This document shows, piece after piece, positions 27,748 to 61,804 of a stretch of 64,000 bases of DNA (the stretch's first letter is position 1; each line of letters starts with the position of its first letter). This DNA comes from Acidobacteriota bacterium (lineage in GTDB: Bacteria; Acidobacteriota; UBA890; WLXD01). Position numbers and translations under genes: made by a program. Under the pieces are notes generated by a model that did no database searches, was not told where the DNA came from, and saw only the letters and a program-made list of their open reading frames with translations. The DNA lies in NCBI GenBank assembly GCA_963666215.2, contig CAXWPL010000002.1, forward strand, positions 544,001-608,000, written 5' to 3'.

Positions 27748-27775
27748 TATCATGATAACGAATCTTATGGAAACT
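27748..27775 (+). other. dif-like XerC/XerD recombination site
   Basis: TATCATGATAA-CGAATC-TTATGGAAACT: 11-6-11 layout with the ATAA-N6-TTATG core, in an AT-rich intergenic island where gene orientation and KOPS-like motifs converge. Confidence 0.7.
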
Positions 27776-27834
27776 AATCGCGCAATGATGGAAGAATTGA
27801 GCTCGGTGATTTGCGGCGCGCTCAGTCTCCATAA
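27765..27834. repeat. 19-bp imperfect inverted repeat containing XerD-like arms
   Basis: TTATGGAAACTAATCGCGC (27765-27783) versus the reverse complement of 27816-27834, TTATGGAGACTGAGCGCGC; 16/19 identical. Confidence 0.8.
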
Positions 27835-27918
27835 CATTGCTGGATTTAACATTTGCGCTCTTGGTCTCCGGCTATCTTGCCGACACCGTCTGCGGCTCGG
27901 GAAGGTTCTGGAGCTGGA

Positions 27919-29454
27919 TTGACGACAGCGCGCCGACAGCGCTCGGTGCGCCTCACGGGCCTGTGCCTGGTTCTTGGGGTTGGGGTGTTCTTCGCTGCTT
28001 TGCGCTCCGAAGCTGGCGACGTTGCGCTCGGGCACCAGCAACCTCCGCGAACGATCGACGAGCGCTCCCGGCGCTCAGTGCCGCCGATGTTTGGGGGTAT
28101 CCAGGTCAACGAACCGGATCACGATCGTTGGGCGGCGGCGCTTCGCGACGATGGGCTGGACGCGGTCCAGGTGACGCTTTACGCCCGCCAGCAGGAATGG
28201 GACACCGGCGAGCTGCATTGGGATCGCGACGCGCCCTGGGTCGTCTCAGAGATCCGTGCGGCGCGGCGAGCGGGCTTGCGGACGATGTTGGTGATGCGTG
28301 TGGCCCTCGAGCATGGGCGGGCTGAGAACCGGCATCTCTGGCACGGGATGATTTGGCCGCGCGCCGAGGAATTGGAGGGCTGGTTCGCGAACTACCGCGA
28401 GTTTGTGCTCTGGGGGGCTGCGATTGCGGCGGCTGAGGGCGTCGACCTGTTTGTTCTGGGCAACGAGCTCAGCTCGATGACGTCGACAACGCGACTTCTG
28501 GAGCTTCCTGAGCTGTATGCCTACTACCTCGACCCCGAGCGCACCGGGCGCGTGCGTAGCGAGCTCGTACAATGCGCAGACCGCGTGCTGGCAGACGGTG
28601 CCGGGGCCGACCTGCTCCAGCTCGACGGCGGCCGCTACGCCGACCTCGACGAGATGCTGCTGGCGGAGGAGACGCGCCATCGGGAGTGGACGTCGACCGT
28701 CGTCAACGGCGGTGATGGACAGGTCGATCTGCGGGCGCTCAACGCCAGGCGTGCGGAGTATCAGCGTTTCTGGGTTGATCTCGCTGCCGAAGTGGGCGCC
28801 CATTTCCTCGGGCCTATTAGCTACGGTGCCAACTTCGATCAGTTCGAGGAGGTTGGCTTCTGGGATGTGCTCGACGCCGTGGCGCTCAATGCCTACTTCC
28901 CGTTGGGACTACTCAACCTCGAGAACAAAACCAGGAGCCAGGTGCTCGATCGTGCGCTCGAGAGGTCTTGGCTTGATGTTGTCGCGCGAGTCCGCGGGGT
29001 GGCCGGCGCCGATCCTCTGCCGGTGCTGTTCGTCGAGCTCGGTTGGACCCGCAAGCTCGGGGCGACGGTGCGACCCTATGCCTACTCTCGAGTCGAGGTC
29101 CTGGAGACCTATTCGGAGGTCGGGATGCCAGGGGAGTCGGACCTAGAAGGTGATGGCACGGGAGCTCGTCTCCCCTACCCGCTGACTTGCGTGCACTGGG
29201 CGACCCAGCCCGAGAGCCCAACGGAGCGTGTCGCGGCGATGCGGGCTCTCGAGCGCGTTGTGCTCGACGGGGCGTTCAACGAGTTGCGAGGGTTCTCATT
29301 GTGGAAACTGACGACCCGGCCGCAACACCGTGAGATCGAGCCTTTCGCCGTGGTGCTCGGCGAACCGGGCCCGGACGCCGCGTTGCTCGACTCCGCGACC
29401 AGCATCTCCGCGAGCGTGCGCGAGCGGTACGGCGGCTGGCATAATCCCCGCTAG
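27919..29454 (+). CDS. GH113-like (clan GH-A TIM barrel) glycoside hydrolase, membrane-anchored or secreted
   Basis: LGNEL acid/base motif, YGANFD, NAYFPL and FVELGW nucleophile motif; N-terminal hydrophobic helix. Confidence 0.7.
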   Translation: MTTARRQRSVRLTGLCLVLGVGVFFAALRSEAGDVALGHQQPPRTIDERSRRSVPPMFGGIQVNEPDHDRWAAALRDDGLDAVQVTLYARQQEWDTGELHWDRDAPWVVSEIRAARRAGLRTMLVMRVALEHGRAENRHLWHGMIWPRAEELEGWFANYREFVLWGAAIAAAEGVDLFVLGNELSSMTSTTRLLELPELYAYYLDPERTGRVRSELVQCADRVLADGAGADLLQLDGGRYADLDEMLLAEETRHREWTSTVVNGGDGQVDLRALNARRAEYQRFWVDLAAEVGAHFLGPISYGANFDQFEEVGFWDVLDAVALNAYFPLGLLNLENKTRSQVLDRALERSWLDVVARVRGVAGADPLPVLFVELGWTRKLGATVRPYAYSRVEVLETYSEVGMPGESDLEGDGTGARLPYPLTCVHWATQPESPTERVAAMRALERVVLDGAFNELRGFSLWKLTTRPQHREIEPFAVVLGEPGPDAALLDSATSISASVRERYGGWHNPR

Positions 29455-29507
29455 GCTGGTCGATCGCCTCCTCTTTCTGCTCCCAAGAACCACGATCGGG
29501 TCTCTCG

Positions 29508-34387: not shown

Positions 34388-35970
34388 CTACAGAGCGGCG
34401 AAGCGAAAGACGAAGTCGACGTACGACTTCTCGATCTCGTCCAGGCTGGCGATGCCGCCAAGACCCTCAACTATCAAGTACTCGTTGATGGTGTGCTGGT
34501 TGGCTCCATGCCCCATACCGCCGAGAACCATAGGCAGGTTGAGTGGCGCGTCGGTGAAGAGATAGAAGGGCGCGCTGCCGGCCAGGTGGGGCCAAATCTC
34601 CGGCGAGATGTCGCGCGACTCGTACACCCCCTTGAGCGCTTGCACGATGGGGTCGGATACGGAGGTCTTGGACCATTCGTAGGCCGAAAGCGGGCGGATC
34701 TCGACGTCGTCGAAGCCGTGACGATCGAGGTGGCGCCGCGCCATCGGCATGATATCGGCGGAGCGCTGGTCGGGAACGATGCGCGAGTCGACCTTTGCGG
34801 TGGCCTCGTGCGGCAGAATCGTCGCCATTCCCGGTCCGGTGTATCCACCCCAGATGCCGTCGATATTCCACGTGGTCGTGTAGAGGTAGCGATCGATCAG
34901 GGCAAGCCCGTCGAGGTCGTCGATGAACGCGCCGACGGCGAGCGACTCGCGCCAACTCTCCGGGTCGAAGCGCTCCATCAAGATGTCGATCAATGCTGCG
35001 TCTTCGGCAGACGGAGCGCGAATCGTGTCGAGGTAACCCTCCATCCGAATCGCGGCCCCGTAGTCGTCGGTCATCGACGTCAGCGCCTGCAGCAGACGCC
35101 ACACCGGACTTTCGACGATCGCAGCGTAGGAGCCGTGAATGTTGCGGACGGCCGGTCCCCTACCCCAACGGCTGCCGGCGGCATTGAGCTCCATGGCGAC
35201 GATGCCTTTGTTGCCGAGGAACATCGACACCGACGCGTCCGGGTTCTGCATCGACATCGCGAACAACATGCCGTCGGCGGCGGCGAGACGCTCACGCTCG
35301 GTGGCGAGCGCAGCCGGAAGATTCGGGCTGCCGAGCTCTTCCTCGCCCTCGATCGTGAAGATCATGTTGACGAGCAGCGTGCCCTTGACCTCGATGATCG
35401 CCTCGAGCGCGTTGAGGTAGGCACGCAGCGGGCCCTTGGTGTTGATCGCGCCGCGCGCCATCTCGCCTTCCCGAGGCCGGGCATGTCGATGACCTTCGCC
35501 TCGCGAGGATCGTCGAGCCAGCGGTCGGGGTCGTTGATCGGCTGCGTGTCGTACATCCCGTAGTTCACCAGCGTTTTCGGAGCGCCGGCGTCATAGAGTC
35601 CCCACACCACCGGGTGGCCATCGGTTTCGATAAGCCCCGCCTCCTGGCACCCGAGCTTGCGCAGGTACTTTGCGGTCATCTCGGCGCATTCGCGCACGCC
35701 GACATTCTGTGCCGAGATGCTCGGTTGCCTCAGGTAGGCTTGGATCTCCTCGAGGTCGCCGCCAAGGCGGCGATCGATGGCTTGGTACACATCGCCGAGC
35801 TCGCCGCTCTGCGGAGCTCTCAGAGCGCTGCTGACTCGGCGACGCGGCGGACGCGTCTTGAACGCCGCGCGTAGCGGCTCGGGCAGCGCGAACGCCGGCG
35901 ACGCAGCCAAGCCCGTGCCACCAGCGGCCAGCGCGCGGCTCGATAGATTCAGGAAACGTCGACGATTCAT
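34388..35970 (-). pseudogene. Tat-exported M20/M25/M40 metallohydrolase, frameshifted at about 35462
   Basis: N-half (RRRFL Tat motif, YGMYDTQP) and C-half (ARGAINTKG, EGEEELGS, HTINEY) lie in different frames, joined at GGG AAG GCG AG ATG GCG. Confidence 0.8.
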
Positions 35971-36106
35971 CTGGCATCTCCCCCTGATTGGCTTGGCTAG
36001 GACTCGCTCCAGCTGAGAGCCCTCAACGGACGGCGCGTAATTCCGCAAATGAGGCGGGCAGCAACGCCCGATCTCCCAGCAAATCGAGAGGTCTGGAGCG
36101 GCAGTT

Positions 36107-37195
36107 CTAGTGCCGAATCTCGAACGGCAACCGCTCGCTCACCGATCGCGTCGCCTTCTTCGTCACCCCGGGCGCGTGCGTCATGTCCATGTACAGCTGT
36201 AAGTCGGAGACCGCTCGCAGCCCACCATGAACCTGGGCGTCGAAGAGCGCGCCGTGTCGGTACGTCGGCTTGACGAGGAAACAGTTGGCGTCGTGCCCGG
36301 CCGGCCGCAGCGACAGCATGTTGGTCCACGACTCGAGCGTGTGCTCGGGTTGCTCGTTGAGCTCCGGCAGGTAGACGTGGACGGGGAACGGCAGCCGGCG
36401 CTGAGGCGACCCGAGATGCAACGCGTGCAGCGCCGCATCGAGCGTCAGCGCGTAACGGTCGGACATCTCGTCGTCGACGGTACGCAGCCGTTGTAGCAAT
36501 TTCGCCGGGTCGGTGTCGCGCATACGGAACGGGTAGACCTCGTTGGAGTCGAAGGCGTAATGCTTGAGCCAATCGGCGAGCAGACGTTGGGGCTGCACGA
36601 GTCGCGAGCCACCGCCCCTCTTGCGCTCCACATAACCGTCGGTCTGCATCTGCTGGAGGATCTGCGAAACCCATCCGAGACTGAGACCCCCGTCCTTGGC
36701 GATCTGCCGGGTCGTCATCCATTGCCCGGGGGATTTCAGCAGCACCCGGAGCGGGATGGTTGCCTTGTCGTGGAACAGCGTGCGCACCTGTTTCCGCGCG
36801 GTGAAACGGTTCCGGTTGCCGGCGATCTGCACAAACACCTGGTTGAACCGCAGATAGCCGTTGCCGCAGCAGTCGAGGTAGCCCAGTCCGGCTTCGCGGC
36901 AGATCCGGATTCCTGCGACTCCGAGATGGGGCGCGAGCAGCACCGCCGCCACACCCTTCGCCGAGCCCAGCGTCCGTAGCCGCGGCAGTGCCTCGCGCAC
37001 GTGTCGTGGCTCACCGCTCGCAACCGAGACGCACAACAGATGCCGGACCGCGCCAGAGTGGCCCAGGAGATCCATCTGAACGACCGACGAATCCCACTCG
37101 GCGACGCCCACGCGAACGCTGGTGCCAAGCACCGGCGGCAGCAGATCTGGCCCGTGCCGCAGGAAGTGTGCTCGGACTTCGCCCGACGTATTCAT
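36107..37195 (-). CDS. AbiEi_2-like (type IV TA antitoxin-like) HTH protein
   Basis: APHL...CREAGLGYLDCCGNGYL, wHTH TTRQIAKDGGLSLGWVSQIL, LLADW and VSDLQLYMD motifs. Confidence 0.75.
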   Translation of the reverse strand: MNTSGEVRAHFLRHGPDLLPPVLGTSVRVGVAEWDSSVVQMDLLGHSGAVRHLLCVSVASGEPRHVREALPRLRTLGSAKGVAAVLLAPHLGVAGIRICREAGLGYLDCCGNGYLRFNQVFVQIAGNRNRFTARKQVRTLFHDKATIPLRVLLKSPGQWMTTRQIAKDGGLSLGWVSQILQQMQTDGYVERKRGGGSRLVQPQRLLADWLKHYAFDSNEVYPFRMRDTDPAKLLQRLRTVDDEMSDRYALTLDAALHALHLGSPQRRLPFPVHVYLPELNEQPEHTLESWTNMLSLRPAGHDANCFLVKPTYRHGALFDAQVHGGLRAVSDLQLYMDMTHAPGVTKKATRSVSERLPFEIRH

Positions 37196-37412
37196 CGCTC
37201 GGCCTTGCGGCGACGCGGCGGCCTGAGCTGGAGACAGAAGAACGGGATCGAGAGCACGGGCGTCGTGGGCTGGGGTGGGCCGGCGCGATCTGTCGGGTTA
37301 TAGCACCGCGCGTTGGGCCATGCCAGCTTTCGCCCCGATGCATGGCAAATCGGTGGCCGGTCCGCGATATTTGCCCGCGCACAGCCCCCGAAATCAGCCT
37401 TCGGAGCGCTCG

Positions 37413-37973
37413 CTAGCTGTCGCCAGTCGGCATGCGCTCGAGTCGCAACCGGTGGGAGACGACGTTGGCCGCCGTGTCGTACGGCAGCGATCCCGTATGC
37501 CGCACTCGCCGACGCTGGTCCGCGCGCAGCTCGATGCGGACGGGATCGCTATGCACGATGTCGTCGTTGTCGTCGAGGAGATCGAGCGTGACTTCCACCT
37601 CGACCGGCTGTGCTCCCGCGTTCACGACGTCGGCCCACCACTCGAAGTACGCCCGATCGTCGTCGGCCGTTGTCCAGTCGAACGCGTTGTCACCGAGCTC
37701 CAGCTGGCTGGCGGCGGACACCGTGACTGCCCTTCCCAACCTGCCTCCAGCCTGCCCGGTCTCGCGATTTCCGAGGGTTCGCCCGCCGTCGGCGACGGAC
37801 AGGCTGGCGGACTGCAGCACAAGCACGAGCGCGATCAGGCCGCTGAGACCGGCAAGGGATCTTGCTGACGCTGGAGGGCTTACGCGTCGCTGCCTTCGCC
37901 AACGGTGCTGCCGCTGGCTGTGCTGGCGAGCGCGCCCCGATGCTTTCATGTCGCTGTTGGCGATAACGGTCAC
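37413..37973 (-). CDS. Hypothetical exported beta-rich protein
   Basis: Hydrophobic signal segment followed by an Ig-like-looking domain (VEVEVTLDLLDDNDDIV). Confidence 0.6.
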   Translation of the reverse strand: MTVIANSDMKASGRARQHSQRQHRWRRQRRVSPPASARSLAGLSGLIALVLVLQSASLSVADGGRTLGNRETGQAGGRLGRAVTVSAASQLELGDNAFDWTTADDDRAYFEWWADVVNAGAQPVEVEVTLDLLDDNDDIVHSDPVRIELRADQRRRVRHTGSLPYDTAANVVSHRLRLERMPTGDS

Positions 37974-38150
37974 GCCAAGCCTCCAGGATCGATTTTATTC
38001 TCGGTCTCGGTCTCGATGACGGGCGAGGCGTTGGAATCCATTGCCAACCGGCGTCGCCGCTCATGTTGTGATCAAGCTTGCACGCCCGTTCAGCTGCGGT
38101 CAAAGACGCCGGCCGAGCGAGCGTCCGCCCTCGCTCCGGTACGACGGCAA

Positions 38151-40406
38151 TCAGTCCGGCTCCCAGATCGGGTCGACATTGGGGTCGTGGTCCCAGGGGC
38201 GTTCCGGATCGGCGCTCTGGAAACCCGAGAATCGCGAAGACGACGAGGCGCTGCCGCGGTTCTCGAATCGGGTACCCGTAGAGGCTGAGCTCGCCGCTCG
38301 GGGCGGTCTTGCTGTGGCAGGCGGCTCGGCTTCTGCGAGCTCCCACGGTTCCACGTGGTGCGGCTGGAGCTCCTGGACAAACCGCGACGGCTGTTGCAGG
38401 AGAGACCCCGAGGCGCCCGGTCGCACGATCGGGTAGCTCAGGTAGAGCTCGCTGCGGGCACGAGTCATGCCCACGTAGAAGATCCGACGCTCCTCCTCTT
38501 CGCCCCCTTCGTCGATCGCACGCGGGCTCGGGATCGCACCTTCGACGAGATGAATCAGGAACACCGCGTCCCACTCGAGACCCTTCGCTTGGTGGATCGT
38601 CGAGAGCACCACGCGTGGCTCATCGCGATGAAGGTCCTGCACGTCCTGGCCGTGCAGCTCTCCTAGCAGCACGAGCTCTTCGAGGAAACTGGCGATGGTG
38701 TCGTACTGGGTGGCGAAGACCGCCAGCTGTTCGAGGTCTTCCATGCGCGAATCGAAGTTGGTGAAGTGGGCCGCCGCGTAGTCCGCATAACCATCAAGGA
38801 GGATCGTTCGGATTGCCGTCTCCGGCTCGTCACACTTCTCTTGCACCGCGGTAAGCATCTCGACCAGGTGGGCCCACGGGCCGCGCGCGTGGCGGCGCAG
38901 CAGCTTCAGCACTTCGGGGCTCGTGAGCAAACGGAGCAAGGCGGCCGCATCGGTGGTTGTACCAATGGCGCGACGCACACGCTCGGCGGTAACGTTGCCG
39001 ACACCGGGCTGCATGAGCAGTAAACGTCGCAACGCTACTTCGTCTTGTGGGTTAGCAATCACCCGCAGGTAGGCGGTCACGTCTTTGATGTGGGCCTGCT
39101 CGAAAAAACGCAGGCCACCACGGATCTCGTAGGGGATGTCGTAGCGCAGCAGCGTTGTCTCGAGCGACAAGCGGTGCGAGTGGGCGCGGTACAGGACGGC
39201 CACTCGGTCGAGCTCGGTGCCCTCGTCACGCAGTTGCAGCAGGCGTTCCGCAACGAAGGCCGCCTCCTGCTCGGGGTAGTTGCACGCCACCAGAGCGGGC
39301 AACATTCCGGATCGCCGCTTAGCGGTGAGCTCCTTCGTGAACTGCCCCTGGTTGTGACGAATACTGTCGTTGGTGAGCGCCAGAATCTGTGGCGTGCTGC
39401 GATAGTTGACCTCGAGCTTGAACACCTCGGTTCCCGGGTTGCGCTCGGGGAAGCCGAGAATGTTCTCGTAGTGGGCGCCACGGAAGGCGTAGATACTCTG
39501 GCAATCGTCGCCGACCACCATCAGGTTGCCGGGCACTGCGGCCGATCTTGCCGGCACCTCACCGCCCCCTGCTAGCGTCGACTGCGAGCTCGAGGAAGGA
39601 CTCGCGGTGCGCTCGTCGGCGACATTCTGCGAACCGTTGGCGATGGCCTCGACGATGGCGCCCTGAACACGGTTCGTGTCTTGGTACTCGTCCACCAAGA
39701 CGTGACGAAACTGCTGCGCGTAGCGCTGCTGCAGCTCCGGGTACTCGAGCAGCATTCGCAGCCACAGCAGCAGCAGGTCGTCGTAGTCCATGGCGTTCGC
39801 CGCGTGCTTGCGTTCGGCGTAGCGTGTGGTGACGGCGATGATTTCCTGCCCCCAGTCGACGAAGCGGGGGTAGCGATCGACGAGGATCTCGTCGATCGGA
39901 TCGCCGGTGTTGGCCGACAGCGAGATCATCGAGCACAGCAGACGCGGCGCCGGGAAGCGGCGCCGCTTGACGTCGACCCCGACGTCGGTGATGCAGAGCC
40001 GCATAACGTCGCGCTGATCGGACTCGTCGAGAATCGAAAAGCTCTCGTTGTAGCCGAAAAGGGCGCCGTGACGACGCAGAAGCCGGGCTCCGATCGAGTG
40101 GAAGGTCCCCGCCCACAGCCGGGGCCCGTCGATGCCGGTGAGCTCGCGAACGCGGCCGACCATCTCTCTCGCCGCCTTGTTGGTGAACGTCACCAGCAGC
40201 AGGCCGTCGGGGGGCACGCCCTGTGAAAGCAGGTAGGCCACGCGGTAGGTCAGCGTGCGCGTCTTGCCGGTGCCGGCGCCTGCAATCACCAGCTTGGGGC
40301 CATCGCCGCAAGTGACGGCGGCGCGCTGCTGCTCGTTGAGGTCGGCGTCGAAATCCGCGCGAACACTCAGCGCCGGACGACTCGGCAGAACGAATCGGCG
40401 CGCCAT
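38151..40406 (-). CDS. UvrD/PcrA/Rep family ATP-dependent DNA helicase
   Basis: AGAGTGKT, TFTNKAAREM, VDEYQD, VGDDCQSIYAFRGA, NYRS, STIHQAKGLEW and EERRIFYVGMTRA motifs. Confidence 0.95.
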   Translation of the reverse strand: MARRFVLPSRPALSVRADFDADLNEQQRAAVTCGDGPKLVIAGAGTGKTRTLTYRVAYLLSQGVPPDGLLLVTFTNKAAREMVGRVRELTGIDGPRLWAGTFHSIGARLLRRHGALFGYNESFSILDESDQRDVMRLCITDVGVDVKRRRFPAPRLLCSMISLSANTGDPIDEILVDRYPRFVDWGQEIIAVTTRYAERKHAANAMDYDDLLLLWLRMLLEYPELQQRYAQQFRHVLVDEYQDTNRVQGAIVEAIANGSQNVADERTASPSSSSQSTLAGGGEVPARSAAVPGNLMVVGDDCQSIYAFRGAHYENILGFPERNPGTEVFKLEVNYRSTPQILALTNDSIRHNQGQFTKELTAKRRSGMLPALVACNYPEQEAAFVAERLLQLRDEGTELDRVAVLYRAHSHRLSLETTLLRYDIPYEIRGGLRFFEQAHIKDVTAYLRVIANPQDEVALRRLLLMQPGVGNVTAERVRRAIGTTTDAAALLRLLTSPEVLKLLRRHARGPWAHLVEMLTAVQEKCDEPETAIRTILLDGYADYAAAHFTNFDSRMEDLEQLAVFATQYDTIASFLEELVLLGELHGQDVQDLHRDEPRVVLSTIHQAKGLEWDAVFLIHLVEGAIPSPRAIDEGGEEEERRIFYVGMTRARSELYLSYPIVRPGASGSLLQQPSRFVQELQPHHVEPWELAEAEPPATARPPRAASSASTGTRFENRGSASSSSRFSGFQSADPERPWDHDPNVDPIWEPD

Positions 40407-40416
40407 CGATTGCAGG

Positions 40417-42234
40417 CTACCGGAGGGGCATTGGAACGGGCGCCTCGAGAAGCGCCCACGAGGGACCGGCTCCGCGTAGCAGCGCCACCAGCCGGGCGCT
40501 CTCGAGCCAGCTGTCGGTGAGCGCGCCTGGTAGTCGCGGCGGCAGCGAAGATCGCGGTGATGCGGCTGCCACGAGCGCCAGCGCATCGGAGAGCTTCCGT
40601 TGGTCTGACAGCGCCATGCGCACTTCCGTTAGCAGGCTTCCCATCTGTTCGAAAACCGAGCGCGACTCGGGATAAACCTGTAGCGAGATCCCGGCTCGCA
40701 GGGGAATTCCCGCGGCGCGACGAGCAGCCTGTACCGCCAGGTTCAGGCCGCCGATCTTGTCGACCAGATTGAGCTCCAGCGCCTGCTGACCGGTCCACAC
40801 ACGACCGGAGCCGATGGCGTCGACCTCAGCGAGGGTCATGCCGCGGGCGTCGGCAACCTTGGCGAGAAACTCGTCGTATGTCTGTTGAACCGAAGTCTCC
40901 AGTGCCAGGCGCTGCTCTGGCCCGAGTGGTGACGATTCGACAAAGATGGCCGCATTGGCGCCACGAGTGATCGTCTCGTTATTGATGCCGATCTTCTCGT
41001 AGGTGCCCTCCAGGTTGATGCGCGACATGACGACGCCGATCGATCCGGTGTAGGTGCTGGCGTCGGCGTAGACCTCGGTCGCCGCAGTGGCGATCCAGTA
41101 GCCACCGGAGGCGGCAACGTCAGACATGCTCACGATGACCGGCTTGGTTTCGGCGGCCAGCTTGGTCTCGCGCCACATGACGTCGGCCGCGGTGACCGCA
41201 CCACCCGGGCTGTCGACCCGCAAGACGATCGCTGCTACGGACGCATCGCGTCGCGCCCGAGAGATCAGCCGCGCGATGGTCTCACCTCCCGCCACCCTGT
41301 CGCCGAACGGGCCGTCCACGGCGCCACCCGGCACCATCATGCCGTCGACGTGAATGAGCGCGATCTTGGCTGCGCCGCTCAGCCACCCGAAGCTCGTCTC
41401 GCTTCCTCGTAGATAGGCACGGACCGAGGTCGTGCGGAGACGCCCGAGCTTCTCCCTCAAGTCGTGGTTGAGCTCGTCTTCGAATCCGAGCGCGTCGACC
41501 AGACGCAGCTGCTCGGCTCTACGGGCGCCGACAATACCCTCGTCGATCGCAGCCTTGACGGCGGCCGGCTCGAGGCTCCTGCCGGTGGCGATACCGTCGA
41601 CGACGCGGTCGTAAATGTCGTCGAGTAGGCGCTCGAGAAAGGCGCGCTCTTCCGCCGCCATCTCGGTGTCGGTGTAGGCGCTCATCGCGGTCTTGAACGG
41701 ACCCGTGCGGAAGACCTCGAACTCCACTCCGAGACTGTCGAGAAGGTCGCGATAGTACTGTCGGCGCGAGACCAGACCCAGGAGGAAGTTGCCGCTCGGG
41801 ATCTGGTAAATGCGCTCCGCACCGGCGGCAACGTACAGGTCGACCAGCGTGCCGATCTCGACGAGGGCGTAGATCGGCTTGCCGGCATCTCGAACGATCG
41901 CGAGGGCGGAGCGGATTTCCTCCGCCTTGGCGAAGCCCGTTTGCAGCGGGCCGACCCTCAACAACACACCCTCAATCCGCGAATCGTTCGCCGCGCGGCG
42001 CAGCGCCGTGTCGATCTCGCGCAGGCTCAGGGGCCCGACCAAACGATCGCCCCAGAACGACGTTGGGCGCTCCACCACGGGCCCGCTGAGACGCAGCTCG
42101 AGCACGTTGGCTCTGCGGCTCCCTGACGGAATCCCGAGCACCCAGCGGTCGATGAGTCGAGTGCTCGTCCAGAACGCGAAGAGCAACACGCCGAAGCCGA
42201 TCAACAGCCAGGGGACCAAGCGCCGCCGGCTCAC
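40417..42234 (-). CDS. sppA: Signal peptide peptidase SppA (67-kDa type)
   Basis: Tandem S49 domains; RVDSPGG, AASGGYW, TGSIGV and GRVWTG motifs. Confidence 0.93.
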   Translation of the reverse strand: MSRRRLVPWLLIGFGVLLFAFWTSTRLIDRWVLGIPSGSRRANVLELRLSGPVVERPTSFWGDRLVGPLSLREIDTALRRAANDSRIEGVLLRVGPLQTGFAKAEEIRSALAIVRDAGKPIYALVEIGTLVDLYVAAGAERIYQIPSGNFLLGLVSRRQYYRDLLDSLGVEFEVFRTGPFKTAMSAYTDTEMAAEERAFLERLLDDIYDRVVDGIATGRSLEPAAVKAAIDEGIVGARRAEQLRLVDALGFEDELNHDLREKLGRLRTTSVRAYLRGSETSFGWLSGAAKIALIHVDGMMVPGGAVDGPFGDRVAGGETIARLISRARRDASVAAIVLRVDSPGGAVTAADVMWRETKLAAETKPVIVSMSDVAASGGYWIATAATEVYADASTYTGSIGVVMSRINLEGTYEKIGINNETITRGANAAIFVESSPLGPEQRLALETSVQQTYDEFLAKVADARGMTLAEVDAIGSGRVWTGQQALELNLVDKIGGLNLAVQAARRAAGIPLRAGISLQVYPESRSVFEQMGSLLTEVRMALSDQRKLSDALALVAAASPRSSLPPRLPGALTDSWLESARLVALLRGAGPSWALLEAPVPMPLR

Positions 42235-42276
42235 CTCGCCCCTCCGGAGTTGCGAGGGGCCCTGTGGACGGAGATG

Positions 42277-42684
42277 TCAGAAGCGAACATGAAAGCCTTT
42301 CAGTGGCTCGTCAGCGTCTCTGGTCTCGTGCTGACTTTCACGGGTGTTGTCGTCGGGCGACTTCCCCTCAGGATCCTCGGCTCGACCTGGCGTCTTGCGA
42401 CGAGCGGTATGTTCGTTGCTCCGCTCGAGATCGATGACGGCCATTTCGACGGTCTCGACCGCTTCCACGATGGATGCCGGAGGACCGCTGTGGCACCACT
42501 CAACGAACTCATCCGCTCGATCGCGAGGCCCCACGACCAACGCTTCTACCGATCCGTCTCGGCAGTTTCGAACCCACCCGCGCAGCCCCAAGCCGAGCGC
42601 CGATTTGCGAGCACTGGCTCGGTAGAAGACCCCTTGGACGCGACCGCGTACGCGTATCTGCAGACGAACGTCGGCAACGCTCAT
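42277..42684 (-). CDS. acyP: Acylphosphatase
   Basis: GRVQGVFYR and GWVRN...DGSVE motifs. Confidence 0.93.
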   Translation of the reverse strand: MSVADVRLQIRVRGRVQGVFYRASARKSALGLGLRGWVRNCRDGSVEALVVGPRDRADEFVEWCHSGPPASIVEAVETVEMAVIDLERSNEHTARRKTPGRAEDPEGKSPDDNTRESQHETRDADEPLKGFHVRF

Positions 42685-42849
42685 CGCGGCATTCTACCAG
42701 GGAGGGTCACGGCTCCGTGCAACCGACGGCGGTCGCGTTCGACGGCACGTGTTTGCTGCCGGGGTCGGCGCTGTCTACTGTGAGGGCCGGCATCCGATTT
42801 CGATTCGGATCAGCTGGTAGAATAACGCGGCTGGTGGGTATGCGCGGTT

Positions 42850-44274
42850 GTGGTTGCCGCGATCGAGAGGTGCAACATTCCGGTGCGTGAGCTCGGCACC
42901 ATATGGCCCCGCTGGCTGGGTCGGGATCGATTCGGCCAGGCCTTCCTGGTTTTGGCGGTGATCTGGACCGCGACAATGCCCCTGTCGATCGCAGTCGCCG
43001 AGATTGCGCTGTGGTCAGCGGCGGCTCTCTGGGCTGTAGCCTGGGTGCGGCGCGAGTTCTACCACCCCGGTGACGCGCCGGAGCCTGCCGACCGCGGACC
43101 GGCGGGAGACATCTTCTCGCTGATCGGCACTCCCCTCATGGCGTTCTGGTGCGCCTCGGTCATCTCCGCGATGAACTCGCGCGCGCCGGTAGACAGCTTG
43201 TGGGAGTTGCGCGAGATCTTCCTCTTTGCGGTCCCGCTGGTGACCTACCTCGCGTACCGTGACTCCGGCGTGCGCCGGCTCGGCCTGCTGGTGTTTGCCA
43301 TCGGCACGGCGATCGCGATTGCGGTCGGTCTAGCTCAAACGTTCGTGGCCGTGCGCGCGGGGCAGTTCCCGGACGCCTATCGTCCGGACGGCCCGCTGGG
43401 CCACTACATGACGTACGCGGGAACACTGATGCTGGCGTTGCCCGTCCTGCTGATTCCCAGCGGTCGCTGGATCGGCATTGCGTCACGACTGCTGGCGGTG
43501 TCAGCCGCGATGGTGGTGCTGCTCACGATGACGCGGAGCGCCTGGATCGGCTTGGCGGCGGGGCTCTTCGTCTACGCTGGCTGTCGCCTCGTAAGGGGCC
43601 GGGCAGAAACCGATTCTGGCGCGCCCCGACAGGTCGACCCCAGAGCCGCTGCGCGGTCGGGAGCAGGATATGGCGTGCCTCTCCTCGTCGGCATCATCGT
43701 CGCCATCGTCCTGCTGCTGTCGCTTGCCGGCAGCGATGCTCTTCTCGCTCGCGGCGCGAGCATCTTCTCGGTGGACAATCCGGCTAATCTCGACCGACTC
43801 GCGATGGCCGCGACGGGACTTCGTGTTGTTCGTAACCACCCCTTTCTCGGGGTGGGGCCCGGGCTGATGGGGAGGGTCTATCCGGCCTGGGCGGTCGAGT
43901 GGGCCGTGAAGGAATCGAATCCTCACCTACACAACAACGCGCTTCAGGTTGCCGCTGAGCGAGGTCTCATCGGGCTCGCGCTGTGGCTCTGGCTGATGGC
44001 GGCGTTCGTTGTCGGGGCGTGGCGTGTGCTGCGATATTCGGGGCCACTCGGCGAGGGTGGACGCGAAGCGCGGGCGGCACTTGCGGCTCTGGCGGCGTTC
44101 CTCGTGATGGGTCAGTTCGAGTACAACTTCAGCGACTCGGAAGTGCTGATGGTCCTTCTGTTCGTGGGCTCGTTGCCATTCGCGGCGAGCTCGGGAATCG
44201 CGATGCGTGCGGCGCGCCCCAACGAGCTCAGGCCAGTCCCAGCTCCGCAGCCGAGCCACGTAGCGCCTCGATGA
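42850..44274 (+). CDS. O-antigen ligase/polymerase (Wzy_C) family protein
   Basis: TMTRSAWIG, HPFLGVGPG and HLHNNALQVAAERGLIG motifs; multiple TM segments. Confidence 0.88.
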   Translation: MVAAIERCNIPVRELGTIWPRWLGRDRFGQAFLVLAVIWTATMPLSIAVAEIALWSAAALWAVAWVRREFYHPGDAPEPADRGPAGDIFSLIGTPLMAFWCASVISAMNSRAPVDSLWELREIFLFAVPLVTYLAYRDSGVRRLGLLVFAIGTAIAIAVGLAQTFVAVRAGQFPDAYRPDGPLGHYMTYAGTLMLALPVLLIPSGRWIGIASRLLAVSAAMVVLLTMTRSAWIGLAAGLFVYAGCRLVRGRAETDSGAPRQVDPRAAARSGAGYGVPLLVGIIVAIVLLLSLAGSDALLARGASIFSVDNPANLDRLAMAATGLRVVRNHPFLGVGPGLMGRVYPAWAVEWAVKESNPHLHNNALQVAAERGLIGLALWLWLMAAFVVGAWRVLRYSGPLGEGGREARAALAALAAFLVMGQFEYNFSDSEVLMVLLFVGSLPFAASSGIAMRAARPNELRPVPAPQPSHVAPR

Positions 44275-45842: not shown

Positions 45843-46269
45843 CGGGGGCAACCGCCACGACGAAGCCCACGAGCTCGTCAACCGCGTAGAGAGCACGGTC
45901 CAAGAGACTGCGTCGCGGTACGCCTGTGTGATCGGCGTGCGCCAGTACGGCCTGGAGGATCTCTTCTGGATACCCCTCGGCGCGCAGGATCTCAATGCCG
46001 ACGAAGGGATGCTCCTCGAGCGACGGGTGCTTGTCGTAGTCGAGGTCGTGGAGCAGGCCGGCGATGCCCCAGAGATTCTCGTCCTCACCGTAGTGGCGCG
46101 CGTAGTAGCGCATCGCCACTTCCACCCCGAGCGCGTGCTTGATCAGATGCGGTGTCGTCGTGTGCGCGTGCAACAGCGCAACCGCTTGATCTCGGGAGGG
46201 AAGCATCAGGTCCGGATTCCGGCGCCGGCTGTCGCGGCACCGTGTGCGCCCGCGACTGGCGTGGACGAC

Positions 46270-47373
46270 CTAGTTCTGCCCGAGGCCGAGCCCGAACGGA
46301 CTGTCGAGCGTGATCACCCGGCTGCCGTCACGAGACAGAATTTCATCGCCATCGAGTACGGCCTGGAAATTTCCGTCGGCTTCGAGTTGCCGCAAGGCAG
46401 TCGGCGTAAAGGAACGCAGACGGCCACGCACCACCACCTCCGGCGAATCACCGAGTCGGTCCTCGAGCCAATACCACTCCGACAGCACACGCGAGTTGAA
46501 GAACACTCGGGCACGTCGCCCTTCGCTGTCTTCCACGATTATGTACGGTGCGCGGTTCTCGAGGCGTCGGCCGGTAATTCGAAGGCCGTAGATGTCGACG
46601 CTGCCTCCGGCGATCCTGTTGGAGGTTGTGATGTAGTCCGTGTCTCGGTCGAGATCCTCGAGCGACATCGGTTCGCCCGGCGAGTATCCATCGGCGCTGA
46701 AGCGCATCTCGCCGGTCTCGACGTAGGGAATCGGTGTTCCTTCGGTGCCGTCGGCCGACAGGTAGCTGAACTCGAGGGCGTCGAGGTCGTCCTTGTTGAA
46801 GAACTCTTCGAGCGCTTGCTCCAGGACGAGCTCCTTGGGCACCCATCCCAGGGGGCTTTCGTATAAGGCATGTGTGCGCAGCGAGACCCTGTCGCCCTCG
46901 TTGAAGCTCAGAAGGTCGAGGTTCTCGCCCGCCAGGAGGATCTCGTTGCCGGGCGGCGGCGCTTCGGGGCCGAATTGAAGCATCGTGGGCCGCTCGTCGT
47001 CGCCCTGGTCGCTGGCGCTGCCGTCGTCACCGGCGAGCGTGTCGTTCGAGCCGGTGCTCGCGCTCGAGATCGCACCATTCGTGGTCGCCGGCATGTCGGA
47101 GCTGCGCAGCAGGATCGAGTCCTGATCGACGTGAGCCACCTCGAGATCGGTGATGACGATCTCGATGCTCGGCGGCGGCGCGCTGAGCGCGTGCAGCATG
47201 AAGGCGCGCGGATGGCTGGGGTTGGCCAGGTACTCGGCCATCGTCATCTCTTGAGCCGTCTTCAGGTAGTAGTCCGTGAAGTACGGAACCGCGGTAACGT
47301 AGTAGACGAAGGCCGCCGCTAGGCCAAACAAAAGCCAGTTCAACGGATCGGTGAGCGTCTTCTTGAGCGCCAT
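46270..47373 (-). CDS. Hypothetical membrane-anchored acidic protein
   Basis: 367-aa ORF with N-terminal TM segment and an upstream TATAAT; no family recognised. Confidence 0.7.
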   Translation of the reverse strand: MALKKTLTDPLNWLLFGLAAAFVYYVTAVPYFTDYYLKTAQEMTMAEYLANPSHPRAFMLHALSAPPPSIEIVITDLEVAHVDQDSILLRSSDMPATTNGAISSASTGSNDTLAGDDGSASDQGDDERPTMLQFGPEAPPPGNEILLAGENLDLLSFNEGDRVSLRTHALYESPLGWVPKELVLEQALEEFFNKDDLDALEFSYLSADGTEGTPIPYVETGEMRFSADGYSPGEPMSLEDLDRDTDYITTSNRIAGGSVDIYGLRITGRRLENRAPYIIVEDSEGRRARVFFNSRVLSEWYWLEDRLGDSPEVVVRGRLRSFTPTALRQLEADGNFQAVLDGDEILSRDGSRVITLDSPFGLGLGQN

Positions 47374-47494
47374 CAGACATTGCCTTCAGCGTTTAGCCGG
47401 TGTCGATTGGGGCTGCCCCCCACGGAGGCGCCGAATTATATGCGTAGGTGCTGACTTGTGTCGAGCGGACGAAATCGCGGCTACCGAATCGGGG

Positions 47495-48493
47495 TCAGAT
47501 GCTCGCCGCGAACCGCTCCAGATCATCACGTCGACCCAGCAGGATCAAGGTCGAACCCTCACTGATTTGATGATCTGGCGAGGGGTTGTAAAGCATCTTT
47601 CTGCCGCTGTCCAGCACCGCGACCACAATCAGGCTGAAGCTCTTGCGGATATCGGTCTCCGCAAGCGTGCGGCCAACCAGCCTCGATCGGTCATCTACGA
47701 GCTGTTCTTCGAGCTGCAATTCCAGGTTCTCGCGCGCGGCAACGATTTCTGTGAACTCGTACACCGTCGGTCGAACCACCGACTGCGCCAGGCGCCAGGC
47801 GCCCAGTCGCTCTGGTGAGACCACGCGGTCGGCGCCTGCGGCATAGAGCCTTCGCTCACCTTGCGCCGTTACACTGCGCGCGATCACCGAAGCGTCGGGG
47901 CGGAGGTCCCTCGCTATCAGAGTCACGTACACATTATCGGCGTCGTCCGAGAGCGTTAGCAGGAGGCCGGCGGCGCGCTCGAGGCCGGCGCGCCGCAGCA
48001 CATCTTCGTCGGTGGCGTCGCCAGTGATGGCGGGCAGGCCGTTGTCGGCCGCATGGTTGGTGACTTCGGCGTCGCTGTCGACGACAGCCACCGCCACACC
48101 TTCCGAGCGCAGAATTTCACAGACCTCCTGCCCCACGCGTCCGTAACCGCACACGATGTGGTGCCCGTCGAGTCGAGCCAGCTCGCGCTCCATGCGTCTC
48201 CTTCCCAACACGCGCCGCATTTCGGCCTCGACGATGAGCCGCGAGAGTGTGGCGGCAACATAGCCGAACGCGGCCACGCCCGTGAGGATCAGGGCCCCGG
48301 TCAATACCCGACCCGACGGTGATAGCGGCCGTACTTCCGAGAAACCAACGGTGCTGAGCGTGATGATAACCATGTACAGGCTCTCACCGAGCGACCAGCC
48401 GGGCTCGAGGAGCCAGTAACCCACGGTTCCGCCGACCATGATCACGACGATCAGCAGAATGGCGATGACGACGCGCCTGCCCGAATCCGACAT
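47495..48493 (-). CDS. Potassium channel with RCK (TrkA-N/C) domains
   Basis: TLSTVGF pore motif, VCGYGRVG and GDAT motifs; TrkA-C YNPSPD. Confidence 0.92.
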   Translation of the reverse strand: MSDSGRRVVIAILLIVVIMVGGTVGYWLLEPGWSLGESLYMVIITLSTVGFSEVRPLSPSGRVLTGALILTGVAAFGYVAATLSRLIVEAEMRRVLGRRRMERELARLDGHHIVCGYGRVGQEVCEILRSEGVAVAVVDSDAEVTNHAADNGLPAITGDATDEDVLRRAGLERAAGLLLTLSDDADNVYVTLIARDLRPDASVIARSVTAQGERRLYAAGADRVVSPERLGAWRLAQSVVRPTVYEFTEIVAARENLELQLEEQLVDDRSRLVGRTLAETDIRKSFSLIVVAVLDSGRKMLYNPSPDHQISEGSTLILLGRRDDLERFAASI

Positions 48494-59094: not shown

Positions 59095-59774
59095 ATGGCG
59101 AAGCAGTATAGGCCTCAGAATCCGATCTGTGAGCCAACGTGGGGCATCTTTCGTTCTTCCGCTGAGCTACCGCTTTCGTCATGCAAGGCGGCGGAATTCT
59201 CCCCACGCCGCTCCATGACAGCACCACACTGTTCTCCCGCGGCCTCTAGACCTTCCTTTGAACAACACCGGACCTCAAGCCCGTGAGACCGCAAGGCGCA
59301 ATCCGGCGATCACGGCTGATTCCCGCAGGCCTATCCAGATCTTTTCCACAACCGCGGAGTCCACCTGCCACGCCAGGCGGAATCCGGAGACACGCTCGTA
59401 ACCGCTGTGCCCTCAGTCGATTAGCCACGACCGCGTGCCTACTTCGCGCTCGAAGCGCCGGCGATTTGCACCAGCCGTCCACAGTACTTTCACCACGCGG
59501 CAGCGGCAGTCGCACTCGTGCGGGCTGTCCGACCTCAGGCGATGTGCGTGCGCAACCCAATCGCAGCCTCGACGGTGCGGGGTATCGGGTGATCGGCGCA
59601 ACAACCCGCACACTCACCGAGCTCACGGAACTGGCCGACGACCAGCGACCCATTAGCTCGTCGACGTCTTCGTGCTCGATTCGGCGCAACGCATCTTGTG
59701 CCACCACTCGCCGGGAATTCGGGTCTTCGACAGGCCGCGATCGAGCCGCGAACTTCAAGTAACGGTTCGATTCT

Positions 59775-59790
59775 TGTCGGCGTGCCGACA
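59775..59790. promoter_or_regulatory. 16-bp palindrome copy 1, candidate non-canonical parS
   Basis: TGTCGGCGTGCCGACA, one central mismatch, intergenic, downstream of parB. Confidence 0.55.
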
Positions 59791-60015
59791 TCCAACGACC
59801 GTCGCGTTGGTGCTGAATGGAGTCTGGGGCAATTAGAACAACTCGTCGGATTGGCGGAGCAGGACCTCGGGGCGTTGGAGGTGCTGAAATCCACTCCATC
59901 CCACGAGGGCGACGAGACCTACGAATCGCCCGACTCCAGCGCATATCGCGCGGCGACCAGCGGCGATCGCGTACCATTCAACGGACCCGGCGCGCTTGCC
60001 GACTCTAAAGCAGAT

Positions 60016-60031
60016 TGTCGGCGCGCCGACA
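60016..60031. promoter_or_regulatory. 16-bp perfect palindrome copy 2, candidate non-canonical parS
   Basis: TGTCGGCGCGCCGACA, 65 bp beyond the parB stop. Confidence 0.55.
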
Positions 60032-60096
60032 GAAGCTGACCTGATACATGCGTTTCCGAAGCGGCGCCTCATCAGGGCCGCTCGTCGGCTACGCTT

Positions 60097-61017
60097 CTAT
60101 GCGCCAGTCTCCGGCGCGGCTGGCTGAGCGGCCGGCCGTGCCGTGCCCTCCGGTCTGTCGAGAAGTCCGCCAGATCTCAGTTGCCTCAGCGCCTCCAGCA
60201 GAGCGCGCTCGACGTTGGAGATCGAGCGTTCGTCGCTGCCCAAGAAGATGCGGACGGTGATGCCGTCGCTCGACTTGAAGCTGAACCGCCTTGGACCGCA
60301 CTTTTTGTCCTGCTCATCGTCTCGTGCGCGCCGTTCGGCGAGCGAGCGCTGGTCCCGGACGAGGTGGCGCACCTGGTCGCGTGTCAGCCCGTCTTCAACG
60401 ACCCGGCGCGCGAGGGCCAGCATGACGGCCTCGCTTTCCTGCTTTGCGATCTCCAGGAGAATTGACTTGGTTCGTACGCCGCCGTCTCCGAGAACCTTGC
60501 GGACAGATTCGGGTACGGTCGCGAGCGCCAGCGACTCGGTCACGCTCGTGCGTGACTTGCTCACGCGCAGCGCGACCTCCTCGTGCGTCAGACCAAAGCG
60601 GTCGACCAGAGCCTGAAGTCCCTCGGCCTCCTCGAAGGCCGATAGATCCTGGCGCTGCAGATTCTCGATAAGGGCGACCTCGAGAGTGCGTGCGTCGTCG
60701 AGCTCCAGCACAATGCACGGCACTTCGCGGAGGCCGGCAGCGCGCGCCGCTCGGTAGCGACGCTCTCCAGACACGATCTGGTATTCAACACCGACGCGGC
60801 GCACGAGCAGTGGTTGCAGAACGCCCACGCGACGAATCGAGGCGATCAGCTCATCGAGTCTCTCGAACGTCTTTCTCGGCTGCTCCGGATTGGGTCGAAT
60901 CGCGGCCACGGGGATCGAGCGTCCGATTGCATTCGTGTGCTGCGACGCCAGCTCCTCAACGAAGTGGGCATCGTGCCGCATGCGTGCCGTCGTGGGCAAT
61001 CCGCGCCGACTAGACAC
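60097..61017 (-). CDS. parB: ParB/Spo0J family CTPase with divergent HTH
   Basis: NPEQPRK, GVLQPLLV, GERRYRAA and ENLQRQDL motifs; HTH THEEVALRVSKSRTSVTESL; GTG start overlaps the parA stop. Confidence 0.9.
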   Translation of the reverse strand: MSSRRGLPTTARMRHDAHFVEELASQHTNAIGRSIPVAAIRPNPEQPRKTFERLDELIASIRRVGVLQPLLVRRVGVEYQIVSGERRYRAARAAGLREVPCIVLELDDARTLEVALIENLQRQDLSAFEEAEGLQALVDRFGLTHEEVALRVSKSRTSVTESLALATVPESVRKVLGDGGVRTKSILLEIAKQESEAVMLALARRVVEDGLTRDQVRHLVRDQRSLAERRARDDEQDKKCGPRRFSFKSSDGITVRIFLGSDERSISNVERALLEALRQLRSGGLLDRPEGTARPAAQPAAPETGA

Positions 61018-61804
61018 GGGCAAGGACCTCTTCGCCCAACGCGGCGTACTGGTGTGCGCCGGTCGACTCTGGCGCATGGGCAAAGATGGCTTCTTTGTAG
61101 GCCGGGCTCTCCTCGAGCCGCACGTTCCGCGAGATCATGGTTTCGAACACCTTGTCGCCGAAGACGTTCCGAATCTGGGCGATGACGTCTCTACCCAGAA
61201 CTGTTCGCCGATCGAGCATCGTGATCAGCACCCCGAGGATTTCCAGGTCGGGGTTCACACGTTGCCGTACTCGCTGCACCGTGTCGAGCAGGTCGTCGGT
61301 TCCCTCCATCGCGAGATACGACGATTGGATCGGAATGACCACTCGGGTGGCGGCCACCAACGCGTTGATAGTGAGCAGACCTAGTGTCGGTGGCGTATCA
61401 ATGACCACAAAACGATACGAGGACGCAACAACAGCCAATTTGTCCCTCAGCCGATAGTGTCCGTCGAATTCACCTGCGAGCTTGATCTCCAGCTTGGCGA
61501 GTGAGATCCGTGACGGCGAGACGTCGAGGGTTGGCATCGACGTGGGGAAGATCACGTCGGACATTGCCAAGGCCGGATCGACGAGCGCGTCGTAGACCGT
61601 CCGGTCGAGATCGGTGACATCGAGAAAGGAGATGGAGCTGTGGGCCTGCGGGTCGAGGTCGACGAGGAGTGTGCGCAACCCCTTGCGCGCCAGTGCCGCC
61701 GCGAGGTTAATCGCGGTGGTGGTCTTGCCCACACCGCCCTTCTGATTGGTGACGGCGAGCGTCACCGTCGGTGTGCCCGTGCCGTTGCCGTTGCCTCCCG
61801 ACAT
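61010..61804 (-). CDS. parA: ParA/Soj family ATPase
   Basis: KGGVGKTT deviant Walker A, DLDPQ, IDTPP and RNVRLEESP motifs. Confidence 0.95.
   Translation of the reverse strand: MSGGNGNGTGTPTVTLAVTNQKGGVGKTTTAINLAAALARKGLRTLLVDLDPQAHSSISFLDVTDLDRTVYDALVDPALAMSDVIFPTSMPTLDVSPSRISLAKLEIKLAGEFDGHYRLRDKLAVVASSYRFVVIDTPPTLGLLTINALVAATRVVIPIQSSYLAMEGTDDLLDTVQRVRQRVNPDLEILGVLITMLDRRTVLGRDVIAQIRNVFGDKVFETMISRNVRLEESPAYKEAIFAHAPESTGAHQYAALGEEVLARV

Follow-up and report, generated by a model that had tools for sequence, protein, structure and literature searches.

A second ParA-ParB-parS set beside the dif-like site and replication terminus of an Acidobacteriota chromosome

Background

Active handling of the chromosome terminus is understood mainly in gamma-proteobacteria, in the form of MatP and its matS sites, and MatP is not a ParB and has an unrelated fold. 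Noc works without a ParA; it is encoded at the origin, and its binding sites stay clear of the terminus. For the ParABS partition sets themselves, a single cargo is expected at mid-nucleoid and two cargoes separate, and partition genes beside dif are known from dif-integrating islands. PMC7383237 describes Noc (Noc-NBS) of the Firmicutes as a ParB paralogue that arose by duplication and acquired a changed DNA specificity. In the present study we analysed a 64,000-bp window of an Acidobacteriota genome (G000:C2:544001-608000) that carries a parA-parB pair, here named parA2 and parB2, with its own palindromic sites, parS2. The assembly of this source genome, G000, is 4.65 Mb in five contigs and 91.7% complete; other G numbers refer to genomes of relatives, and L numbers to loci. 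A preliminary description of the window had proposed that this pair belongs to a second ParABS system next to the terminus, separate and with a specificity of its own.

Two orthogonal ParB-parS sets were found to lie at opposite poles of the chromosome, the canonical one beside dnaA and the second one beside the terminus and a dif-like site, and the second set is linked to dif in an arrangement that is old and conserved in the phylum. The second ParA-ParB pair suggests machinery set aside for the part of the chromosome that is replicated last, and segregating or organising the terminus would be its function. A literature search, which did not cover subscription journals and supplementary files, brought up no account of a ParB linked to the terminus or to dif, whether in Acidobacteriota or in other organisms, and passages of two reviews or surveys, PMC12704722 and PMC7022226, hold nothing on such a ParB.

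The second and the origin partition sets

The genes miaB, BFN (bifunctional-nuclease domain), parA2 and parB2 are arranged head to tail on the minus strand, so that they are transcribed towards dif (Table 1). The originally proposed pair was recovered as a Soj-type ParA and an open reading frame (ORF) with ParB_N and HTH_ParB domains, running from 60097 to 61083 on the minus strand; the probable start of parB2 is the GTG at 61020, since the extension upstream of it has in-frame stops in relatives. ParA2 matches Thermus Soj (1wcv) with an E value of 1.7e-57, retains the deviant Walker A motif KGGVGKTT and the DNA-binding arginine in RNVRL, and is 43% identical to the origin ParA1. Prediction of a complex between ParB2 and BFN, with two alignments, scored 0.00 each time and is evidence neither for nor against an interaction.

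The repeated 16-bp palindromes of the preliminary description are TGTCGGCGCGCCGACA and TGTCGGCGTGCCGACA, which lie downstream of the operon and not at its promoter. They share the form TGTCGGCG[C/T]GCCGACA and are the only two matches to parS2 at up to 1 mismatch in the 4.65 Mb, both beside parB2; at up to 2 mismatches there are 12, and the 15-mers TGTCGGCNNGCCGAC/A occur only at these two places in the genome. The 16-mer TGTCGGCGCGCCGACA also adjoins parB2, or sits inside it, in relatives. An ORF at 59246-59977, in the spacer that holds both sites, was considered as a conserved member of the operon and rejected: its GC content at third codon positions (GC3) is 0.58, compared with 0.72 to 0.81 for its neighbours, and it is without homologues, with no tblastn match in 91 related loci (L004-L094).

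The canonical set is on contig C4, where the region from 746 to 766 kb encodes yidC, gidB, a ParA (378 aa) and a ParB (288 aa), followed by dnaA, dnaN and gyrB, the whole cluster occupying 752 to 765 kb. The origin ParB1 has ParB_N, HTH_ParB and ParB_C domains. The genes of this set and a canonical parS are 5 to 7 kb from dnaA, on a contig other than that of the window. The canonical sequence TGTTNCACGTGAAACA has one good match in the genome, TGTTCCACGTGGAACA at C4:754539, and a poor 2-mismatch match at C4:904266; it is absent beside parB2, where the adjoining sites are parS2, and the sole canonical site is the one by the origin set. The expected separate canonical set near dnaA, a gidB-parA-parB cluster with its own parS, is thus present. 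Canonical ParB genes lie 9 to 18 kb from dnaA in five named chromosomes, and canonical parS sites 8 to 39 kb from dnaA in 5/5 genomes checked.

ParB_N domains were matched at three places in the genome: C4:753 kb, C2:604.7 kb and C5:1606 kb. The last belongs to a third pair, of ParA2/ParB2 type, at C5:1605574-1606921 (L002 7574-8921). Its parA3 is intact and encodes a protein with 61% identity to ParA2. The accompanying parB3 shares the peptide RKRGLPxxxRMRHDxHFV and is broken after approximately 145 residues, with a TGA within the match; later parts are readable in another frame, rapZ is next, and the contig ends 3.6 kb away. In relative G003, a further ParB-like protein with ParB_N and helix-turn-helix (HTH) domains is encoded at L127 2857-3801 (G003:C2:~799.9-800.8 kb). 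It has no ParA neighbour, is without the ParB2 N-terminal peptide, and is of a different, unplaced type. A proposal that this gene, approximately 167 kb from the parB2 of G003, corresponds to ParB3 of G000 and so links C2 to C5 was dropped, as the protein is of a different type.

Position of the window at the terminus

The cumulative GC skew of C2 climbs for 580 kb and then drops, its ten highest 1-kb points falling at C2:579-592 kb, and a profile of the window alone peaks at 38 to 44 kb. The sole full dnaA match is at C4:759.7 kb, beside a skew minimum at about 780 kb on the same contig; the minimum is therefore the origin and the maximum the terminus in G000. Skew thus places the window where the preliminary description had it.

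In a search for strand-skewed octamers, those with at least 150 occurrences never rose above 71% strand skew, and among those with at least 40 occurrences GGGTAGGG reached 87%; because of this last result the KOPS-like sequence GGGNAGGG was chosen for polarity mapping. In training regions outside C2 its leading:lagging ratio is 231:101. On C2 there are 58 copies on the plus strand and 21 on the minus strand to the left of the dif-like site, and 3 and 22, respectively, to its right. The cumulative maximum and the last plus-strand copy are at C2:570233 and the first minus-strand copy is at C2:573173, so that the flip brackets the dif-like site at C2:571751, as expected from the claimed convergence of KOPS-like motifs. 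The companion claim, that gene orientation also converges there, held roughly: in the ORF list of the window, genes are on the plus strand up to about 34.3 kb and mostly on the minus strand afterwards, a turn about 6.5 kb to the right of the dif-like site.

The dif-like site CATGATAACGAATCTTATGGAAA occupies an AT-rich intergenic stretch, with an SLT/LysM gene on one side and a GH113 gene on the other, and is the sole genome match at up to 3 mismatches. It lies 32.3 kb from the parB2 stop and 19.2 kb to the right of xerD, which confirms the layout given in the preliminary description. The product of xerD scores 332.6 bits with the XerD model (cut-off 329.6) and 302.4 bits with the XerC model, which is under the cut-off of that model. 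Variants of the site were found 30.6 to 38 kb from parB2 in four relatives of the same family or order: G003 (1 mismatch, single match), G002 (1 mismatch) and G006 (2 mismatches), in the last two of which it is the only match below 3 mismatches, and G011, where the variant is one of five 3-mismatch matches and was chosen by position and arm sequence. Being single-copy, with inverted arms and a 6-bp centre, placed at the switch in skew and KOPS, kept in relatives, and accompanied by xerD, the site is a strong candidate for dif. To the right of dif, at a distance of 150 bp (window position 27923-27938), is CGACAGCGCGCCGACA, a parS2-like sequence with one perfect half-site; at its level of 3 mismatches, as many matches are expected by chance in the window.

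Table 1. Coordinates of features in the 64,000-bp window.
Feature	Position	Strand	Basis
xerD tyrosine recombinase gene	7558..8526	+	Phage_integrase and SAM-like domains; TIGR02225
GGGNAGGG polarity-flip interval, plus to minus strand	26233..29180		last plus / first minus copies
dif-like site CATGATAACGAATCTTATGGAAA	27751..27773	+	inverted arms GATAA / TTATG around 6-bp centre
Cumulative GC-skew maximum plateau (terminus-type turning point)	35000..48000		ten top 1-kb points
Spacer of ~1 kb after parB2, apparently non-coding, holding both parS2 copies	59095..60096		GC3, no homologues
parS2 copy b, TGTCGGCGTGCCGACA	59775..59790		16-bp palindrome
parS2 copy a, TGTCGGCGCGCCGACA, perfect palindrome	60016..60031		66 bp past parB2 stop
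parB2 (probable start)	60097..61020	-	ParB_N 3e-31 and HTH_ParB 2.7e-16; ORF list runs to 61083
parA2, Soj-type ParA ATPase	61010..61804	-	AAA_31 6.4e-53
BFN/DUF151 (bifunctional-nuclease domain) gene, directly upstream of parA2	61839..62312	-	BFN_dom 8.5e-41
miaB (UPF0004, radical SAM, TRAM), first of the conserved four genes	62456..63898	-	domain matches

Between dif and parB2, in or near the skew-maximum plateau, are also rho (30398-31831, plus strand) and a gene for a UvrD-family helicase (38151-40586, minus strand). Rfam and tRNA scans of the window found no non-coding RNA. Elsewhere in the assembly, the same rare palindromes occur in mirrored order at about 72-78 kb of C1 and 423-429 kb of C3, which points to a repeat or an overlap between contig ends and may represent an assembly join or a large inverted repeat; the skew of C1 also turns at about 80 kb. 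Extra skew minima with no dnaA match, at about 690 kb of C1 and 1290 kb of C5, with weak skew in the small arms beyond them, may be rearrangements, misjoins or noise.

Features of the ParB2 protein

ParB2 keeps the CTP-binding motifs, with GERRYRAA, ENLQR and PNPEQPRKTF aligning to Thermus and Myxococcus ParB, and residues G85, E86, R87, R88, E119, N120 and R123 are invariant in 31 orthologues. Its two Pfam matches (Table 1) are to PF02195 (ParB_N) and PF17762 (HTH). The AlphaFold2 (AF2) model, with a pLDDT of 86.9, shows ParB_N and the HTH and, towards its C-terminal end (residues 244-283, block pLDDT 76-90), a beta-beta-alpha unit. The best PDB matches of this model are ParB-CDP, ParB-CTPgammaS and ParB-parS structures, including Caulobacter ParB-parS 6t1f at a Foldseek TMt of 0.82-0.85, and KorB structures are also among the fold matches. 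For the C-terminal dimerisation domain, ParB2 has no match to PF23552 (ParB_C), whereas ParB1 has one, and hhalign covers columns 30-218 only. Neighbours of ParB2 in the ESM Atlas are acidobacterial clusters.

In a quick tree of 64 rows (44 ParB2 and 20 canonical, the latter being acidobacterial origin copies and some ParBs of other phyla), short of a completed careful search, a single branch with an SH-aLRT of 100 separates ParB2 from ParB1, and ParB2 broadly tracks the lineages. The two types differ in three consensus segments: the N-terminus (krGLPxxxxMRHDaHfVeeL in ParB2, RkxLGrGLxALiP in ParB1), the recognition helix (KsRtsvTEtL and rxRxtVaNxlRLL) and the next helix (KSxLLqiaR and GHARALL). 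Within the recognition helix, KSRTSVTE thus stands in place of KxRSTVAN, and further on KSxLL in place of GHARALL. According to PMC7383237, the residues of Caulobacter ParB that contact parS are G170, K171, S172, R173, N178, G201 and R204. By motif register, ParB2 would keep K-S-R, with an invariant Glu at N178, a gap at G201 and a Lys at R204. These changes fit a site, such as parS2, with the outer TGT/ACA of parS and different inner positions. The preliminary claim that the second set has its own DNA specificity is supported in this way, by a distinct conserved palindrome and a changed recognition helix predicted from alignment.

The ParA-activating peptide of LG(R/K)GL type is absent from ParB2, and the segment krGLPxxxxMRHDaHfVeeL stands in its place. 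Loss or decay of this segment where parA2 is absent, described below, suggests that its role may be equivalent to that of the ParA-activating peptide.

Conservation across Acidobacteriota

A search of species-representative genomes with ParB2 gave 80 loci, 74 of ParB2 type and 6 canonical. By record titles the ParB2 loci are mostly from Acidobacteriota (Thermoanaerobaculia, Terriglobia, Blastocatellia and Vicinamibacterales), with a few metagenome-assembled genomes labelled otherwise. An upstream flank of 3.6 kb or more is available for 57 ParB2 loci, and in 46 of these the order miaB-BFN-parA2-parB2 is complete; parA2 is missing in 3, miaB in 8 and BFN in 1, so that BFN is upstream in 56/57. 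At E<=1e-42, ParB2 was matched in 147/251 genomes of the phylum with at least 95% completeness, an approximate count, since a few weak positives whose alignments start at about residue 55 may be canonical ParBs and two unpublished genomes are included.

This gene order bears on the possibility that the pair is left over from the partition module of a plasmid or a dif-integrating element, either domesticated or selfish, and has no present role in the chromosome. Such a history would account for the second copy of ParA2/ParB2 type with a broken parB on C5, and islands of this kind do place partition genes beside dif. The four-gene order including the core gene miaB, however, recurs across classes, the ParB2 tree broadly follows the lineages, the motifs and sites are evidently under purifying selection, and no other element genes are found in the cluster, whose neighbours are miaB and housekeeping genes. 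IMEX elements are recognised by two flanking dif-like copies together with element genes, and G000 has one dif-like match at up to 3 mismatches genome-wide and no second such site. We therefore regard a remnant as very improbable. The description of the cluster as free of mobile-element hallmarks stands. In the interval between dif and parB2, a Mutator-family (IS256-like) transposase gene lies at 44488-45750 on the minus strand; it is the sole mobile-element hallmark in the annotated part of the window.

Positions on the replicon were calculated with dnaA as a proxy for the origin and with exact lengths, for 16 single-contig or near-closed replicons. G257, a 2.95-Mb contig of unclear closure, was left out of this count, as were G249 and G265, in which dnaA and parB2 are on separate contigs. 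In 15/16 replicons, parB2 lies 0.416 to 0.497 of the replicon from dnaA (median 0.472), the exception being G033 at 0.246. The proposed linkage of the orthologues to the terminus is borne out by these distances, and in several genomes a dif-like site is adjacent as well.

A first dif pattern, derived from the G000 site, did not transfer to other classes, and a looser one did. When 16 genomes were searched with this degenerate pattern, the distance from parB2 to a dif-like site came to approximately 0.1 to 1 kb in six (G102, G175, G217, G257, G114 and G034), to 24 kb in G035 and G184, and to about 39 kb in G153 and G254, where the matches are weaker, with 2 mismatches. A strict regular expression for the arms found dif-like sites in the fetched flanks of 10/100 ParB2 loci. 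In L040 the parB2 stop is followed by parS2 and, 30 bp further on, by dif, and in L097 dif lies between two parS2-like sites that are about 685 bp apart, approximately 180 bp after parB2. The compact order miaB-BFN-parA2-parB2-parS2-dif is probably ancestral, judging from these comparisons, and if so the 32-kb gap between parB2 and dif in G000 would be secondary.

Such close spacing raises the alternative that ParB2-parS2 is an accessory to XerCD-dif and FtsK, in which ParB2 clamps loaded at parS2 would bring together or label sister dif regions, or regulate when FtsK arrives, controlling dimer resolution or decatenation, with ParA2 secondary. The intimate arrangements in L040, L097 and the six genomes speak for it, as does the persistence of ParB2 where parA2 has been lost. 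Against this, the G000-type order has dif 30 to 38 kb from parS2, which is far for a direct effect, the sites of the lineages that lack parA2 are scattered over hundreds of kb, and most lineages retain both parA2 and the N-terminal peptide. An accessory role is therefore unlikely, though it deserves some weight.

A perfect TGTCGGC-NN-GCCGACA is present within 2.5 kb of parB2 in 28/98 loci, about 520 to 590 bp inside parB2 or just past its stop, and the next commonest palindrome half-site near parB2 occurs in 4 loci at most. Genome-wide, counting matches at up to 1 mismatch, the parS2 sites near parB2 number 4/4 in G254 (span 77 kb), 5/6 in G153 (81 kb), 7/9 in G114 (130 kb), 8/8 in G217 (approximately 760 kb) and 9/9 in G035 (approximately 890 kb around the terminus). 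Pooled over 16 genomes, 58/76 parS2 matches are within 10% of replicon length of parB2, as against 20% of matches expected. A reversed-pattern control gave 0 to 5 matches per strand per genome; it exceeded the motif count in G031 and G102 and equalled it in G003, G034 and G235.

Sites inside or directly after parB2, and the KorB structures among its fold matches, would also suit a main role of ParB2 in transcription, in the manner of KorB, with parS2 as the operator through which it controls its own operon or neighbouring genes. A regulator of this kind would not explain the further sites tens to hundreds of kb away, always around the terminus, or the downstream location of the G000 sites, and we consider this explanation to have hardly any likelihood.

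Lineages without ParA2

In L086, L087, L089 and the f62 genomes the order is miaB-BFN-parB2, without parA2. The N-terminal peptide is missing from ParB2 in the ParA2-less loci L087, L089, L098-L100 and L110 and is decayed in L086; with the exception of L086, these proteins start straight at the ParB_N domain. It is mainly because the peptide and parA2 are lost together that we take the peptide to be the contact with ParA2. Retention of ParB2 without parA2 means, in turn, that ParB2 has a role independent of ParA2. Genomes G035, G175, G184 and G217, which have no parA2, contain 8 to 9 parS2 sites each over approximately 0.8 to 1.1 Mb, centred on the terminus.

These four genomes are the argument for an alternative in which ParB2 is a terminus-domain organiser or division-coupling factor, an analogue of MatP-matS or a positive counterpart of Noc, which would condense the terminus, anchor it at the divisome, or act in the loading or unloading of SMC-type complexes. 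Most other genomes, G000 among them, differ from these four in having 1 to 7 sites no further than 130 kb from parB2 and an intact ParA2; no divisome or SMC partner was identified, and ParB2 scores 163.2 bits with the NCBIfam Noc model TIGR04285, well under its cut-off of 315. As a general account this is improbable, somewhat more so than an accessory of XerCD. The related suggestion of the preliminary description, that the pair was repurposed as Noc was, is not supported for G000, which keeps both ParA2 and a ParA-type N-terminal peptide; Noc-like repurposing is plausible in the lineages without parA2.

Proposed function

We lean, if not strongly, towards a ParABS orthogonal to the one at the origin, with a centromere that would mark dif and the terminus, a function suggested by position and homology. 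In the proposed mechanism, ParB2 would act as a CTP-dependent clamp that loads at parS2 (TGTCGGCNNGCCGACA) and spreads across the dif neighbourhood, and its peptide KRGLPxxxxMRHDxHFVEEL would stimulate ParA2, a nucleoid-bound Soj-type ATPase. The unreplicated terminus would be held near mid-nucleoid, where the septum is to form and dif is acted on by FtsK and XerCD, and after replication and unlinking of the terminus the sister termini would be pushed apart. The behaviour of ParABS with one cargo and with two matches what the terminus needs before and after termination. In lineages without parA2, ParB2 would serve as a ParA-independent organiser of the terminus domain, with its sites over approximately 0.8 to 1.1 Mb.

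Several observations weigh against this reading. ParB2 was not found at E<=1e-42 in 104/251 genomes, and whole families are empty (0/22, 0/21 and 0/14), so that it is dispensable in part of the phylum. With the degenerate pattern, no convincing dif was found near parB2 in G086, G235, G031, G032 and G064. In the closed genome G033, parB2 is 1.35 Mb from a good dif-like site and has no motif nearby; that dif-like site is 0.48 of the chromosome from dnaA, and the genome looks rearranged. No perfect parS2 is present within 2.5 kb of parB2 in 70/98 loci, in Thermoanaerobaculia single exact parS2 sites are 23 and 231 kb from parB2, and G000 has no more than two sites, each of them 32 kb from dif. 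Because of the kinship among the genomes, a nominal or binomial P value overstates the significance of parS2 clustering. Lastly, the joint loss of parA2 and the peptide is probably a single event.

A fuller version of this reading is a terminus centromere in Acidobacteriota, in which a ParB paralogue would form a CTP clamp whose loading sites are hard-wired to dif, and which together with ParA2 would first place the termini actively, then move them apart, and connect them with FtsK/XerCD at the septum, as a ParABS-built counterpart of MatP-matS; in one class the ATPase would have been shed and the sites expanded to a megabase-scale terminus domain. We offer it tentatively, as a model to which we give a little less credence than to its opposite. 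If true, this would be the first case in which a chromosome with a ParABS at its origin devotes another one to its terminus. The coexistence of two ParA gradients on one nucleoid would become testable, as would the re-programming of ParB specificity at the same helix positions as in Noc and the conversion of a segregation motor into a ParA-free domain organiser, and the system would provide a natural orthogonal ParB/parS pair for labelling of DNA loci.

Comparison with known systems

The closest relatives of the second set are chromosomal ParABS systems (Soj/Spo0J-parS; 1vz0, 6t1f, 7bnk), with which it shares a Soj-type ParA with a deviant Walker A motif, the ParB_N CTPase motifs and HTH, and a 16-bp palindrome beside or inside parB with the same outer TGT...ACA. 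It differs from them in its location at the terminus and dif instead of the origin, in the inner 10 bp of the site, in the invariant Glu that replaces a DNA-contacting Asn and the replaced GHAR segment, in the N-terminal peptide, and in having no match to the Pfam ParB_C model. The ParABS sets of second replicons, such as ParAB2-parS2 of Vibrio cholerae and those of the secondary replicons of Burkholderia, likewise combine a paralogous pair and an orthogonal centromere in one cell, but those sets serve a separate replicon and sit close to its origin, whereas here both sets are at opposite poles of one chromosome.

In contrast to Noc, ParB2 has an adjacent parA2, sites concentrated at the terminus and a score under the Noc cut-off, whereas the two are alike in that specificity maps to the same helix positions, as described in PMC7383237. 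With MatP-matS of enterobacteria and vibrios, the second set shares a short palindrome repeated only around the terminus and dif, the acidobacteria without parA2 having 8 to 9 such sites over approximately 1 Mb; unlike MatP-matS, the ParB2 system adds a ParA ATPase and probably, from its conserved motifs, a CTP clamp.

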